Shown here: positions 19,015 through 63,819 of the stretch, in pieces
Numbering within the stretch: position 1 is the first letter of the stretch
How the letters are laid out: each line of letters opens with the position of its first letter
The notes under the pieces: generated by a model
What the model saw: only the letters and a program-made list of their open reading frames with translations
Told to the model about the DNA's origin: nothing
Database searches by the model: none
Assembly (NCBI GenBank): GCA_951406725.2
Contig: OX597830.1
Span: 4,464,001-4,528,000 of the forward strand
From: Octopus vulgaris
Lineage: Eukaryota
Length of the DNA: 64,000 nucleotides
Reading direction: 5' to 3'
Translations under genes and position numbers: made by a program

Positions 19015-19082
19015 TAGCTCACAGCTGTTTCTGCTATAAGCTGCAATGCACTCCTAGTTGAGTGCATGTGTCCTTGGAGCTA
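19015..19082 (-). ncRNA. Degenerate type-I hammerhead ribozyme remnant
   Basis: Minus strand: UAGCU-CCAAGGA-[hairpin AUGCACUC/GAGUGCAU]-GAAA-CAGCUG-UG-AGCUA; stem I and palindromic stem III intact, core and cleavage triplet (GUG) mutated. Confidence 0.45.
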
Positions 19083-19480
19083 GATATTAGGTATATGTCG
19101 TGCACTTTGAATTGTGCTCTACAACTGTGTGTGTGTGCATCTAAGTGCTTGTGTTTGTTCGCACCATTTGGCAACTGGTTTTTTTGATATCCTCACAACT
19201 TGGGGGAAAGAGAGTGACAGAATATGCACCTGATTTAATAGTAAACAGTTTGGTTTAAGAGACAAACAAAAGCTGTCGAAGGAGGTGCCCCAGCATCACC
19301 TCAGCATGGCCTCCGTCCAGTGACTGATAGAAATAAAAGAATGACAGCAGAACTGATGTGATGTGTGACACTGTTAGGACTAATTATGTTGCCATGGTGC
19401 TGAAGTGATGGATAAAATAAAGTTTCAGGACATTTAACCTTGAAAGACAAGTTCAAAAGTAAATGCAAGAAATTAATATA

Positions 19481-19768
19481 GATGATGATGGTGGTGGCAG
19501 TGGTGGTTGTGACGATGATGGTGGTTGTGGCAGTGGTGACGATGATGATGGTGGTGGTGGTTGTAACTCTGATGGTGAGGATGATGGTGGTGATGGTGGT
19601 GGTGATGGTGATGGTGATGGTGGTGGTGGTGGTGGTGGTGGTGGTGATGGTGGTAACTCTGATGGTAATGATGATGGTAGTGGTGATGGTGGTGGTGACG
19701 ATGATGATGATGGTGATGGTGATGATGGTGATGACGGTGGTGGTGGTGGTGATGGTGATGGTGATGAT
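19481..19768. repeat. (GGT/GAT)n trinucleotide microsatellite
   Basis: Direct reading. Confidence 0.95.
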
Positions 19769-22700
19769 GAGTTTATTGTGTGCGGTGCTCAAGTGCACTG
19801 TAACTTTTTAGAAAAAGGATAAAAGAGGGAAGAGAGAGAGAGAGAGAGAGAGAGAGAGAGAGAGAAGCAGTAAGTGAAATAAAGAAGAACAGCAATGAAA
19901 GCGAAAGGTGCGTTTGCAGTAAACAGAATAAAGCACAAAACCACGGCAAAGTGAACAGTGAAAGAGTCATAAAGAGGGGGAAAGGGTGCCTGGGAGTAGG
20001 AGTGGAGAATTCCAGGAAGCATGGAAATTTTTAAGGAATATTCATGATACTGAGTAAATAATATCATGATAATGATGATGATGATAGTGGTGATGATGGT
20101 GAAGGTGGTGGTGGTGTTGACAATGCTATATGAAGAAAGTAGGTGAGTGCGAAACCTAGGTTTGCTTTTCCATTATTGCTTCTTATGTAAAGTCAAAGTT
20201 CTTTCTAGAAATGTAGGTAAGTGTATATAAAAAAATATAGAAAAAAGAAATCAAAAGAAAAAGAAAAAACTTCCATATGAAAATGTTTACCAAAAATATA
20301 CATTTTCTCCAAAGTATATAGAGTATGCTTTTAGGAATATATTTATAGATCCCTTTTGACATCATTTGTCAATCTTAATAAAACGAATATAATTAAGCCG
20401 AACAGATTCACGAGGATACTCAACACAAATGTTGTCTTCAACTATTTCTTCGTTAATATTGAAGGCAGAATGGTGTTAATACACGAATCTTTCATTTCCC
20501 TCTCACACTTCTCACCCTCTCTCTCTCTCTCTCTCCCCACTCTCTTTTCCTCCCTCCCCCCACCGCCTATAGTTAGTAATTATTTACCATGTGCTTTAAA
20601 TCTATTTCACTTAGAAGCCAACAGATACATATAACTCATAACTACCATTCAATCTGCCATGTCTGTTTTGTGGTTTTGCTTCTGATAAAATGCTTTGTGT
20701 AGTTTGTCCAAATGTATAAATTGAAGATGGCTATATTTATTTTATACACATTATGTTAGACACAGAACCTGCATGGTCAGATATGAAACTCATAATGATT
20801 ATGTTATTTTGTTTATTTTTGTCAGTGTGCTTATAAATCCTCTATACATAACATATATCTATACATATACAGACATATATATACATATACAAATATATAT
20901 ATACACAATAATACATAATATATATCTATACATATACTGACAAATATATATATATATATATATATATACACATATATATACATACATGTACATAAATACA
21001 GATATACACAATATAAACACACACATATATGTGTACACCACAAACACACATGCACAGGTGTATATGTCTGTCAATGAATATGAAAGTGTGTTTGTTGCCG
21101 TGTAAATAGTACCCCTATCACCACCAACTTAAAGCACAATATTTCATTTGCCTTGCTTCATATATAAAACTATTTTAAGGTAGGGCCATCCCCACCCCTC
21201 AAGGGTAATAAAAGCAAATCTAAAAAGGAAATAAAAACAACAAAATAAAAAGCAAGAACAGAGTCTTGTTGGTATGTAGCGCTTGAAGTGAACTGTATGG
21301 TACCACACCTTTCATGATTGCAGTTAATAGTTGAGTAAGAGCAGCAGCTGCTGGGTGTGTATGTTTCGAGAGAGAGAGAGAGAGAGAGAGAGGGGGGAGT
21401 AGAACTGTTTATGGATGGACAGGGAAAGTATTTGATTGTCTTCCAGCCATAACAATAACAGCAACAACAGCCATTATCTTGGAACTGATTCTTGTAATAA
21501 ATAAACCATTGGATGGTGATGTAATTTACCATTAATTAACTGTAGAAAATATATTATTGTAATTAATATTTAAAATGATTAATTTATTTTAAAAAGATAA
21601 TTGAGTATTTGAAAACTGAGGAATTTCGCAGAGTATCAAAGCCTTATGTATAGAAGTATAGGTGCATGGTTTGTGTGGTCTCTAGTTCAGTCCTGTTGCT
21701 CAGCACCTTACTCATGTGTCTTCTACTACAGCCTTAAAGTGGCCAGTGCCTTGTGAGAGAAATTGGTCAACAGAAATGGCATTAAACATCTTTGTGTGTG
21801 TGTGTATGTGAAAGAGAGAGAAAGAGGGAGGTAAATCTGGGCTGCTATTTCTAGCATGTTGAATGACCACATAGATGTAAAAATGTGGACGGAAGTATAG
21901 AATTTGTTGATAGTTATTCAATAAAAAAAGGTTTTCGGTAAAAGGTAGAGATTTATCTTCATGAAAATATATTAGAGAATTTCTTTCACTTTCAGATAAA
22001 ATTTTAATGTATGAAACCATCAACATTTACATATGTGACAGAAGTTAGAAAAAGTAAACTAGGGAAAAAAAGAAAAGAAGGAAAATATTGAAAGCAATTT
22101 GCGATTGTGATTTGACTTTGAACTGCAAAGGTGAGATGAAAGTGAACAATAATGGTCAGTGACAATTGAAATAGAGAGAGCTATATCGGTAGAAGAATGG
22201 CAGGATAGTGTGTGTGTGCTAATTATCAAATAAATAGTGTGCACATATATTTGTAAGTAGGTGTAATGGCTTCGTAGGATTTTATAGAAATTTGTTTCTT
22301 TTCTTTTTCTTTCTCTTTTACTGTGGAATGCAAAGACATTTTTCAGGCTTGATGCCAACCGAAGCTTCATCTCTCCTACTTTTGAGATTCTGTGATGATT
22401 CTAAAAGAGCATCACCATCATACAAGTGGTGCCATTCTTTTCTAATCCTCTGTGGAAACATGTCTAGCCATGAGGAAATATTACTTTCCTTGGAGACAGG
22501 CGAAGGTTGGTGACATGAAGGGCATCCAGCTGTAGAAAATCTGCCTCAATGAATTCCATCCAACTTATGCAAGTACAAAAAAGGGGACATTAAAATGATG
22601 AGGATTATATATATATATATATATATATATATATATATATAGGTACAGGGGTGGCTGTGTGATAAGAAGCTTGCTTCCCAACCACATGGTTCCAGGTTCA

Positions 22701-61749: not shown

Positions 61750-62190
61750 TCCCCCTCTCTCTCTCTCTCTATATATATATATATATATATATCCCTCCCT
61801 TTCTCCTGCTCTCTCTCCTTCCCTTTCTTCTCTTACTCTCCCTCCTTTCCTTTCTTTTCCCTCCTTCCTTTCTTTCTTTCTTTCTTTCTTTCTCTCTCTC
61901 TCTTTCTTTTTCTTTCTTTTTTTCTTTCCTTCCTTCCTTCCTTCCTTCCTTCTTTCTTTCCTTCTTTTTCCTTTCTTTCTTTCAAGACAGTGAGGTGTGG
62001 AATGCAGAACGTGTATTTTTCAACTCGTAAATCTTCAAGGCTGCAACCATTTCTTTATAGCACTCTCTCTCTCTCTCTTTCTCTCTCTCTCTCTCTCTCT
62101 CTCTCTCTCTCTCTCTCTCTCTCTCTCTCTCTCTCTCTCTCTCTCTCTCTCTCTCTCTCTCTCTCTCTCTCTCTCTCTCTCTCTCTCTCA
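61750..62190. repeat. Polypyrimidine (CTTT/CCTT)n and (CT)n microsatellites
   Basis: Direct reading. Confidence 0.9.
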
Positions 62191-63424
62191 CACACACACA
62201 TACACAAAAAAAAGGAAGAAAGAAAAAAAAACCTGAAACAAAACCAACAGAAACATCCTGAGTTTTTCTAAGAGTTACAGCTTTGATTGACATGTTTTTT
62301 TTTGTATAAAAGTAGATAGATTAGCGTTTGACAGTTTTAGGTGTGGTAAATATCCCTCTGGATATTATGTAATCCAATCAGGATTATCTGTACTCTATAT
62401 GCTGGCTATATCTCTTCTCTGTGGTTTAACATTGAAACACAATAATGTCTATGTGTGCACATGTGCGTGTGTGTGCGTGTGCATGTGTGTGTGTGTGTGT
62501 GTGTGTGTGTGTGTGTATGCTTGTAAATTATACTAATAGAAGTTCTATGGTTTCAATATATTTTTCCTTGTGTCATGTTACTAAAGAACCAAGTAAATGT
62601 TTGGAAGCAAACACTAATGATTTATATGTTGAGTAGAATTTCTGAAATTCCTCTTTCATTGATTTATTGAGGAATAAATGTTTTATTTTTTCATCTTTTT
62701 TTATACTATATTTTATATACATACATATATATGTGTGTGTGTATATATATATTATTTATTTTTTAGCAATTTAGTTACTTTTGTCTAAACCATTGTGGTT
62801 GCGATCAACCAAACAATATTGTTGAGAGATATTCCAGAGGATTAGGTATCAGGAATGTTCTAAAAATGCTCTAATTTCGAATAATCACAATGAAAAATAA
62901 AAGGATAAAAAAAAACAAGTGTCCCCACCCTGACTTCTTTTCCCATCAAGATTATAGCTGTTGAAATATTCAAATATATTTTCTTTCATGGAACGAATGG
63001 AATAATATATTTACAGTTCCCTCAGATTTCATACAAACTCACAGAAAAACACTGTTTCCATCAGAGATTTAAACAAAATGATAAACCATTCTGTTATTTT
63101 ATTTTATTTTTCTGATAAGGCTATTGATTATTGAATTGCACCCACTCTGCTATTCAAATTTATGTTATTGATCTTTTAGAAATGAAATCCAAAATCAAAA
63201 TCCACTGGGTTTGAATGCACAACAGCGGAGAATTGGATCATTTGCTGATCTATTTCATATCAATTTACATTTCAATCAGTTGAAACGCAATTCAATTACA
63301 CAGCTACGCATTAAGCAAGGTTCATAAGTCTCATTCTGTTTCAATGTACCTAGCTGCATGTATGCATGAGTATGCACACATGCCCAGCAATATATATATA
63401 TATATATATATATATATATATATA

Positions 63425-63819
63425 CGTTTAAATATTTGTTGTGCAAGATTTTTTATGTGAAGTCGTGTGTTGAAACAGATATTGTTATATTTCGGAATGG
63501 TCATATTGCCAGTTTAGCCAATAAAAACACACGCACTATATATTTGGTGTTATTTTGCTTCAGTGATATTGCGCAAATGAAGACATACAATAGAAATACA
63601 AAATGGCTGACGGTTAGTAAGGAGAGACACAAGTAAGTGAGAAGAAAACAAAGGACCACTGATGCGGTCACAGGAGTGTGACGAAAGAACTTTGGCCGAA
63701 ATAAGATTAAGATTAATGTAAAAAATAAATATCACTGAAGCAAAATAACACCAAATATATAGTGCGTGTGTTTTTATTGGCTAAACTGGCAATATGACCA
63801 TTCCGAAATATAACAATAT
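63425..63819 (+). mobile_element. Young (TA)n-embedded element with perfect 92-bp inverted arms flanking a hammerhead-like motif
   Basis: 63479-63570 is the exact reverse complement of 63728-63819. Confidence 0.85.
63653..63697 (+). ncRNA. Hammerhead-like motif with A9C core variant
   Basis: GGACCA-CUGAUGC-G-GUCACA-GGAG-UGUGAC-GAAA-G-AA-CUU-UGGCC. Confidence 0.65.

Follow-up and report, generated by a model that had tools for sequence, protein, structure and literature searches.

This locus raises the question of which elements carry the ten hammerhead motifs that an initial annotation noticed in a 64,000-nucleotide stretch of the Octopus vulgaris genome (the window). Hammerhead-shaped remnants are present at all ten coordinates. 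In our assessment, they very probably represent eight dispersed repeat families (A to H), likely all inserted by the enzymes of Penelope-like elements (PLEs); three of these would correspond to 3' ends of coding elements that carry the hammerhead, another would be an ORF-less tandem unit, and four of the eight have a changed core letter that is predicted to slow cleavage. The description of the motifs as minimal type I hammerheads of the PLE type, in high-copy, TA-associated and PLE-mobilised families, agrees with these results, the assignment of A, B, C and H to PLEs being based on anatomy. The copies in the window are as follows.

18952..19083, minus strand: family H, an old, decayed copy with relatives 78-89% identical; core remnant from 19077
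22870..23067, plus strand: family A, copy 1; CUGAUGA core at 22946 with a broken stem III pair; a TA tract follows
23126..23331, plus strand: family A, copy 2, with 81% identity to copy 1; the core at 23200 is decayed
23589..23781, minus strand: family B, inverted arm, 5'-truncated and including a one-sided tail
23785..24029, plus strand: family B, main arm; CUGAUGA core at 23832, the window copy lacking G12
35006..35165, plus strand: family C; core at 35035, TA on both sides
35305..35931, minus strand: family D, main arm; core CCGAUGA (U4C) at 35688; loop II is long and stem III palindromic
35920..36023, plus strand: family D, inverted arm that matches 35319-35422 at 100% identity, with a TA tract at the end
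48671..48838, minus strand: family E, copy 1, Neptune-like PLE 3' end; core CUGUAGA (A6U) at 48791
53446..53743, plus strand: family F, old, decayed Hydra-like PLE 3' end; core CUGAGGA at 53461, long stem-loop II
59123..59305, minus strand: family E, copy 2; CUGUAGA core at 59244, this copy lacking G12
63423..63570, minus strand: family G, inverted arm and tail; 63424-63513 corresponds to codons 1-30 of an RT-endonuclease ORF
63570..63815, plus strand: family G, main arm; core CUGAUGC (A9C) at 63659, TA at the end

Comparison with relatives reveals that the family H copy has lost the 5' arm of stem II by deletion. At 81% identity, the two A copies are probably separate insertions into the same TA tract. 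The majority sequence of family B combines a canonical core with a palindromic stem III. Family C is young (99% identity in 29 of 29 fetched relatives), and its site at 35035 is the only hammerhead in the window with a fully canonical core. The D main arm comprises a full 591-nt non-coding unit preceded by the final 36 nt of another. The eight families exceed the minimum of six proposed initially; their stems were also thought to be largely unrelated, but A and E agree in stems II and III and in a 10-mer downstream.

The exact sequence CTGANGA is found at four of the ten sites (22946, 23832, 35035 and 53461), and Rfam searches detect no hammerhead family among the best 150 of 434 matches for the window or among the five matches for the canonical site 35035, the matches listed being microsatellite-driven or due to chance. 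The six copies that lack CTGANGA and the Rfam results are compatible with chance matches in AT-rich, repeat-rich DNA, but this reading, to which we assign practically no probability, is already refuted by controls. A type I descriptor identifies one canonical motif in the window (35035) and two with one core mismatch (35688 and, on the minus strand, 3799), compared with none in 12 dinucleotide shuffles; the motif at 3799 is absent from the initial list. Applied to 60 unselected 10-kb stretches (600 kb), the same descriptor finds five canonical and ten one-mismatch motifs, whereas 20 shuffles yield no canonical motif and a mean of 0.55 one-mismatch motifs, and the reversed sequence yields none. 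Both counts thus exceed the shuffled background, but the estimate of one motif per 6 kb, which includes decayed and variant copies, has to be replaced by about one intact canonical motif per 120 kb genome-wide, as judged from the 600-kb sample. Furthermore, exact 34-35-nt variant motifs occur in 132 to 6499 copies per family, compared with none in reversed controls, and family majorities make better hammerheads than the individual window copies. These majorities form the expected three-way junction, with stems I and II paired and stem III short or palindromic (strictly palindromic in A, B, D, E and H; not in C, F and G), although stem I of G, with three pairs and a bulge, fails the descriptor used here. 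Folding of single strands recovers stem II for most copies, though not the complete junction; predicted homodimer energies (-6.7 to -10.6 kcal/mol) were obtained without a control and so are not used as evidence. The output of a general repeat finder on the window was swamped by microsatellites.

The link to coding elements is clearest for family G. The G main arm in the window is a pseudo-LTR (pLTR) that is 100% identical to the pLTRs of an intact PLE at another locus (L246). This element has the arrangement pLTR-ORF-3' UTR-pLTR, with an additional inverted copy upstream; its direct, hammerhead-containing pLTRs (6162-5918 and 1564-1320) flank the ORF, an arrangement found for G only. The frame is free of stops for 1312 amino acids (1309 from the ATG, 135 nt downstream of the hammerhead core) and contains the motifs DKSG, DVVSLY, GAAIG, RYVDD, CTDNYCTVC and YSIRC...YVGET. 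A Pfam search with the G protein gives no match and a PDB sequence search nothing useful, so that the RT call relies on these motifs and on weak RVT_1 and GIY-YIG matches in homologues. By these features, family G is the terminal repeat of a young, intact, putatively autonomous PLE encoding RT and a GIY-YIG endonuclease. In family E (loci L006/L257 and L278), an upstream UTR of 600-720 nt is preceded by a broken GIY-YIG frame with a CX4CXXC linker, for which the Pfam match to GIY-YIG is below threshold (E-value 0.041); regions with clustered E copies contain no long PLE ORF. For family F, two of the three long upstream extensions read (L184 and L192) contain a broken endonuclease with the CXCX5C linker that is the signature of Hydra (PMC8557442). 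Comparison by eye of linkers, spacing and motifs with the supplement of the same paper, rather than a tree, suggests that E is Neptune-like, G Nematis-like and F Hydra-like. The proposed connection of the units with RT and GIY-YIG ORFs is thus borne out in full for G and by broken endonuclease frames for E and F, whereas no joined RT/GIY-YIG ORF was found in the examined copies of A, B, C, H and D. The G pLTR belongs to an intact element and, upstream, E and F pass into sequence coding for an endonuclease, so these copies appear to be 5'-truncated ends of autonomous PLEs. The window contains no full RT or GIY-YIG ORF, as originally noted, but the inverted G arm retains the first 30 codons of one.

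Truncation at the 5' end, inverted arms, one-sided tails and a preference for (TA)n all belong to the textbook traits of PLEs, which the octopus families display to different degrees. In the window, the inserts abut (TA)n clearly for both A copies, C, D, both E copies, G and one end of F, and weakly for H and B. Among fetched copies, (TA)4 lies within 8 nt of the query end in 24 of 29 for A, 22 of 29 for E, 15 of 29 for C and 9 of 20 for G, against a background of 4.3%; most other C and G copies continue into a tail before the TA tract. The low values for F (1/14), B (0/14) and H (1/14) refer to query ends that are not natural ends. For D, TA is present on both sides of 39 of the 44 insertions, so that A, C, D, E and G are all enriched. 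Because TA is absent where the G pLTR runs on into the ORF and at the tandem junctions of D, it appears to be the target rather than a part of the element. All three of the inverted duplications reported for the window are present (23720-23780/23969-24029, 92% identical; 35319-35422/35920-36023, 100%; 63483-63570/63728-63815, 100%), but they are inverted 5' arms and not terminal inverted repeats. Such arms are common in C (24/29), G (11/20), D (25/44) and B (8/14), and rarer in A (3/29), E (0/29), F (4/14) and H (2/14).

From the sequence anatomy, ORF links, copy counts and TA contact, which are seen directly, we infer each enzymatic and RNA step of the following scheme. The GIY-YIG endonuclease, with its Zn-finger-like linker, would nick (TA)n, and the free 3' end would prime reverse transcription at either of two AT-rich points near the 3' end of the RNA, 60-100 nt apart, which would correspond to the end and the tail. 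The inverted arm would result when synthesis is primed from the opposite end of the break. Synthesis would usually stop early, which would explain why mostly the ribozyme-bearing end of 150-600 nt survives. The hammerheads would cut only as dimers, via the short or palindromic stem III.

Family D differs from the other seven families, in which head-to-tail non-coding hammerhead units were not seen. It is an ORF-less, seamless tandem of 588-591-nt units, each with one type I hammerhead, with up to about four head-to-tail units per arm; no joined ORF was found in the 44 insertions, 29 of which exceed one unit on one strand with variable 5' phase. Units and arms within one insertion have private changes in common (L123, L125, L127, L135 and L261), the unit is strongly folded (z = -5.0), and there are no recurring extra letters at the predicted cleavage site, a GUC at unit position 287. 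D has likely been copied repeatedly from a single unit-length (circular) or multimeric RNA. D-like contigs were seen in the four examined of 14 matching assembled runs; none of the runs listed is marked as RNA, the RNA status of these 14 is a guess and no joints or ends were seen in the four, so that they speak neither for nor against D RNA. D copies with a canonical core were considered as autonomous parents and rejected: they form a sister subfamily, 90% identical, that has an identical tandem junction and is likewise ORF-less. Nor do the endonuclease fragments found in the vicinity of D and A copies establish a link: the fragment in L278 is part of the E lineage, and that in L262 comes from a different family, which has a canonical hammerhead of its own.

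The initial annotation interpreted all these families as non-autonomous retrozymes that spread via circular RNAs made by their ribozymes. Family D, being ORF-less, seamless in tandem, often longer than its unit and highly structured, fits this view, and family C could be added given that the start points of its copies differ by no more than about 20 nt and that no extension into an ORF was seen in the 29 fetched. Nevertheless, G, E and F are joined in one continuous sequence to frames for an endonuclease or a full RT-endonuclease, and head-to-tail units without an intervening ORF were not seen in A, C, E and G. As a general statement, the retrozyme interpretation is already refuted by the intact element at L246, and we regard it as very improbable. 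Only D fits it, as an ORF-less unit that likely borrows PLE enzymes.

The motif was initially described as having a CUGANGA core, but most of the cores depart from this pattern, in four families as the majority state. The canonical core (C3 U4 G5 A6 N7 G8 A9, G12 A13 A14) prevails in B, C and F, and H is mixed. Among the matches listed, A9C is found in 96 of 100 for G (3053 exact copies), A6U in 94 of 100 for E (4146 exact copies), and U4C in 77 of 100 for A (6499 exact copies) and 85 of 100 for D (132 exact copies); canonical sister subfamilies account for 21 of 100 in A, 13 of 100 in D and 3 of 100 in G. These samples are biased, given that pattern counts hold all other letters fixed and the loci from DNA searches are best matches; the G copies come from a pattern search, a DNA similarity search with the G core region having given no match, not even to itself. 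The variant families keep the stems and GAAA. The fold being kept while U4, A6 or A9 is changed, fast catalysis is likely not needed for spread; four of the eight families have spread with an altered core letter, and their cutting is predicted to be either slow or dispensable.

What the variants mean can be read in several ways. They could be fully active ribozymes, aided by dimers, proteins or other ions, with cleavage still essential for transposition, a possibility that we consider rather unlikely. Stems, G8, G12 and GAAA are retained across subfamilies; U4C is less active in vitro yet permits viroid infection (PMC3088659), and Mn2+ supports cleavage by A6C (PMC7151607). By contrast, in a mutational scan, single and double changes in the CUGA region all had low activity, except for a C-G swap (PMC9901934), even canonical minimal hammerheads are weak (PMC4209133), eight of nine Xenopus dimers showed no cleavage (10.64898/2026.07.22.740005), and Naiads spread without canonical hammerheads (PMC8557442). 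Conversely, the variants might be dead passengers, that is, chance mutations in a few master copies, with the RNA fold under no selection, a reading that we consider rather unlikely. Each variant is a single substitution that could hitchhike, canonical sister subfamilies exist for A, D and G, and covariation tests are not significant (for F, 174-423 of 500 shuffles score as high; for D, with two pairs changed on both sides, 74 of 500). However, in E the U6 state spans subfamilies that are 70-96% identical, and of 28 further copies, 27 have U at position 6, whereas all four bases occur at position 7; in 15 older copies, the motif has diverged by 14.6% compared with 23.0% for the flanks, a gap that BLAST anchoring may inflate. 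Compensatory changes are visible in stem I between A and E and in stem II between D subfamilies. A further reading, to which we assign a similarly low probability, is that independent PLE lineages from different clades repeatedly tuned down or lost hammerhead catalysis, kept the fold and then came to dominate as subfamilies. In that case, either slow cleavage would be selected or the chief role of the motif would be structural, or that of a dimerisation signal, in relation to the RT. The lineages concerned would include the young, intact, autonomous G element with A9C and the U4C retrozyme, likewise young.

The system itself is not new: minimal hammerheads at PLE ends in (TA)n have been published, including those of one octopus family (Hydra-1_Obim, with a (TA)n preference and a hammerhead, in the supplement of PMC8557442). 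Like the endonuclease-positive PLEs of the Neptune, Nematis and Hydra clades (Craig et al. 2021, PMC8557442), the octopus elements have a C-terminal GIY-YIG domain with a Zn-finger-like linker, hammerhead-containing pLTRs in partial tandem, inverted 5'-truncated arms, one-sided tails and a (TA)n preference; unlike them, they have tails of about 60-100 rather than 30-40 nt, a long G ORF (1309 amino acids) with an Asn-rich insert, and non-canonical majority cores in G, E, A and D. Like the metazoan PLE hammerheads of Cervera and de la Pena (2014, PMC4209133), the motifs have a short stem I, an extra nucleotide after A9, G10.1-C11.1 and a tiny or palindromic stem III, with many families per genome and mostly single truncated copies; however, the family-wide core change in that study is a compensatory U3-A8 pair, whereas the octopus U4C, A6U and A9C are uncompensated. 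D resembles metazoan non-LTR retrozymes (Cervera and de la Pena 2020, PMC7229834; Li et al. 2026, 10.64898/2026.07.22.740005) in its non-coding tandem units with one predicted type I hammerhead each, low GC and strong fold, its unit of 588-591 nt comparing with 150-450 bp and 51-972, respectively; it differs in its PLE-type minimal motif, with U4C in the youngest subfamily, and in its PLE-type inverted arms in (TA)n. The natural variants U4C (viroid, PMC3088659) and A6C (phage Bcep176, PMC7151607) are likewise single uncompensated changes at positions 4 and 6, but these are rare single sequences, whereas the octopus variants prevail in whole families that count hundreds to thousands of exact copies, and one of these families has an intact ORF; neither A6U nor A9C is named in the passages compared. 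The unusual feature of the octopus families is that core variants form the majority in four of them. No description of family-wide A6U, A9C or U4C in PLEs was found in the literature, as far as the sources compared were accessible. Lunse et al. 2017 (RNA Biol), which reportedly deals with small hammerhead variants of PLEs and lies outside this comparison, may cover some of them.

Standard descriptors and Rfam miss the variant cores, so that ribozyme counts in such genomes are too low. The intact G element, with its 100%-identical copies, could be used in a transposition assay, and the ORF-less family D with its PLE footprints supports the proposed partnership between PLEs and retrozymes. The natural sister pairs of A, D and G that differ at one core letter provide test material. 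The function of the PLE hammerheads has been called unclear (PMC8557442); if their catalysis was indeed tuned down, the role of these hammerheads would become directly testable with the canonical and variant sister pairs.

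All ten sites that the initial annotation described as type I hammerhead motifs contain hammerhead-shaped sequence. They belong to eight dispersed repeat families, A to H (at least six had been claimed), with core starts in the window as follows (minus strand where stated):

19077, minus strand: family H
22946 and 23200: family A
23832: family B
35035: family C
35688, minus strand: family D
48791 and 59244, minus strand: family E
53461: family F
63659: family G

The canonical motif, however, is rare among them: exact CTGANGA occurs in only 4 of the 10, the strict type I descriptor is passed only by 35035, and 35688 matches with one mismatch. 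Another one-mismatch hammerhead-like match, at 3799 (-) and absent from the initial list, may be due to chance. All three inverted duplications claimed for the window are present. The window is (TA)n-rich with 33.5% GC (genome size 2.8 Gb), and 12 shuffles of it gave no descriptor matches. In 600 kb of unselected DNA, the type I descriptor identifies 5 canonical and 10 one-mismatch motifs, versus 0 and 0.55 for 20 shuffles of this sample; thus, the hammerhead motifs are real and above the chance level. The proposed density of about one per 6 kb applies to hammerhead-shaped sites in the window but not to canonical motifs, of which the sample contains about one per 120 kb. The stems of these five canonical hammerheads (loci L039, L041, L044, L047 and L175) are unrelated to those of families A-H, so many more families exist in the genome.

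Every one of the eight families has relatives elsewhere in the genome. BLAST detects 9 pieces of A, 2 of C, 12 of D, 11 of E and 3 of the G core in the 600-kb sample, and none of B, F or H; identity to relatives is about 71-89% in the latter three families, which are old. For C, D and G, there are copies elsewhere that are 99-100% identical to the window copies. The family-majority sequences make better hammerheads than the copies in the window, and the majority is canonical in B, C and F. The stems had been considered largely unrelated, but stem II, stem III and a downstream 10-mer are common to A and E, whose stem I sequences differ by a compensatory change. This conserved 10-mer, located 3' of the hammerhead (window 22990-23003 and 23249-23260 (+), 48740-48750 and 59195-59205 (-), and also A and E loci), is partly complementary to the stem II 3' arm and GAAA, and could form an alternative, inactive hammerhead fold; the predicted minimum-energy folds do not use it.

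Family G includes an intact coding element. Among the G loci, which were chosen as close pairs of pattern matches and then fetched, L246 consists of an inverted truncated copy, a pseudo-LTR (pLTR, the hammerhead-bearing repeat flanking the ORF of a Penelope-like element, PLE), a stop-free frame of 1312 aa (1309 from the ATG), a 3' UTR and another pLTR. The two pLTRs are each 100% identical to window 63571-63815 and carry the A9C departure from the canonical core. The protein contains the RT motifs DKSG, DVVSLY, GAAIG and RYVDD, a CX4CXXC linker and a GIY-YIG-type end. It has no Pfam match; of its 46 homologues, five were scanned and two of these showed weak RVT_1 or GIY-YIG matches, and an Octopus vulgaris-labelled protein is 99% identical to the RT-endonuclease region. 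The pLTR ends within the ORF start, and the inverted arm in the window carries codons 1-30. A long Asn/Ser-rich low-complexity insert precedes the RT in L246 (-) (ORF residues about 255-505). The homologue P0041, labelled dynein regulatory complex subunit 6-like, contains a stretch that matches the G ORF at 98% identity and is probably a gene model that absorbed an insertion.

In family E, one of the 29 relatives fetched (L006) and an additional locus (L278) continue upstream into a broken GIY-YIG frame, and in family F, L184 and L192 continue into a broken endonuclease whose linker is CXCX5C. Linkage to RT and GIY-YIG ORFs is therefore found for G (intact) and for E and F (broken endonuclease frames), but not for A, B, C or H. 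Compared by eye with the supplement alignments of PMC8557442, E appears Neptune-like, G Nematis-like and F Hydra-like. Locus L262 (4055-3455, -) contains another Neptune-like endonuclease fragment, downstream of which lie a canonical minimal hammerhead of its own and TA; it represents a ninth family.

Against a (TA)4 background of 4.3%, (TA)4 follows the query end far more often in A (24/29), E (22/29), C (15/29) and G (9/20), and most of the remaining C and G copies have a 60-85-nt tail before TA; for F (1/14), B (0/14) and H (1/14), the ends tested are not natural ones. TA is also present 5' of the element in 16/29 A and 21/29 E copies. Since TA is absent where the G pLTR runs on into the ORF and at D junctions, TA is the target.

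Family D is a non-coding unit of 588-591 nt. Among 44 insertions (24 taken from the best DNA matches and 20 picked from the pattern list), 29 are longer than one unit on a single strand, an inverted arm is present in 25, and TA flanks 39 of them on both sides. The 5' phases vary, and the 3' ends fall in two clusters, at unit positions 488-497 and 585-591. The unit folds far better than shuffles (z -5.0, 0/100), and a 90% identical sister subfamily has a canonical core, the same tandem junction and no ORF. Being non-coding, over-unit-length and strongly folded, with inverted arms and TA on both sides, D fits the description of a retrozyme and bears PLE insertion footprints. The arrays would also be explained by multimeric read-through RNA instead of a circle. 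At several loci, private changes are common to the units and arms of one insertion, as expected from repeated copying of one template, although local duplication could produce the same pattern. Within its tail part (unit positions about 500-535; window about 35360-35395, -), D has another hammerhead-like segment that is more degenerate, with GAAA and a short stem; the D unit may have arisen by fusion of two terminal modules.

Other repeats are present in the window. Next to TA tracts, at 3070-3243 and 36525-36612, lie a palindromic stub (83%) and a single copy related to it; missing from the initial list, they resemble the ends of a further PLE-type family in head-to-head arrangement. At 13949-14380, an inverted pair (81%) surrounds a TA tract and a short AT-rich element related to C and D-like family ends. 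A 90-aa frame at 12958-13230 (-), without a Pfam match, resembles a C-terminal portion of a CR1/L2-type LINE ORF2. Several SINE-like families are abundant, with many copies (e.g., 26355-26911, 16862-17248 and 54211-54836).

Pattern searches that were exact except for one free position, tallied by eye among the first 100 matches listed, reveal majority cores that depart from CUGANGA (numbering per PMC3088659): position 6 is 94 U, 5 C and 1 A in E (4146 copies), position 9 is 96 C, 3 A and 1 U in G (3053 copies), and position 4 is 77 C, 21 U and 2 A in A (6499 copies) and 85 C, 13 U and 2 A in D (132 copies). Reversed-pattern controls gave no matches. In a mutational scan, changes in the CUGA region yield low activity (PMC9901934), natural U4C (PMC3088659) and A6C (PMC7151607) examples are weak, not dead, and failure to cleave is frequent even among canonical dimers (PMC4209133; preprint 10.64898/2026.07.22.740005); reduced cleavage is accordingly predicted for the variant cores, and that they are active, rescued ribozymes appears rather unlikely. 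That they are dead passengers is similarly doubtful: among 28 additional copies of the E lineage (70-96% identical; pattern-selected in the case of several of the 13 young ones), 27 have U at position 6, whereas all four bases occur at position 7, and in 15 older E copies the motif has diverged less than the flanks (14.6% vs 23.0%). A strong structural claim is weakened by covariation that does not exceed shuffles in F and is not significant in D. The reading that ranks somewhat above these two, still tentatively, is that the fold is kept while cutting is slow or dispensable.

Given the anatomy, ORF links, counts and TA contact, these families are probably mobilised by PLE machinery. By analogy with established PLE biology (PMC8557442, PMC4209133), the GIY-YIG domain would nick (TA)n, reverse transcription would be target-primed at AT-rich points in the end or tail of the RNA and would terminate early, the second arm would be inverted, and hammerhead cleavage would be dimer-dependent. 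A total of 31 recently active Penelope-like families is described for O. vulgaris in PMC13282606, the main text of which lacks the word 'ribozyme'. Thus, the ten sites amount to a real and abundant collection of PLE ends together with one retrozyme-like unit. Systems of this kind are known; the unusual majority core variants provide a good natural experiment.
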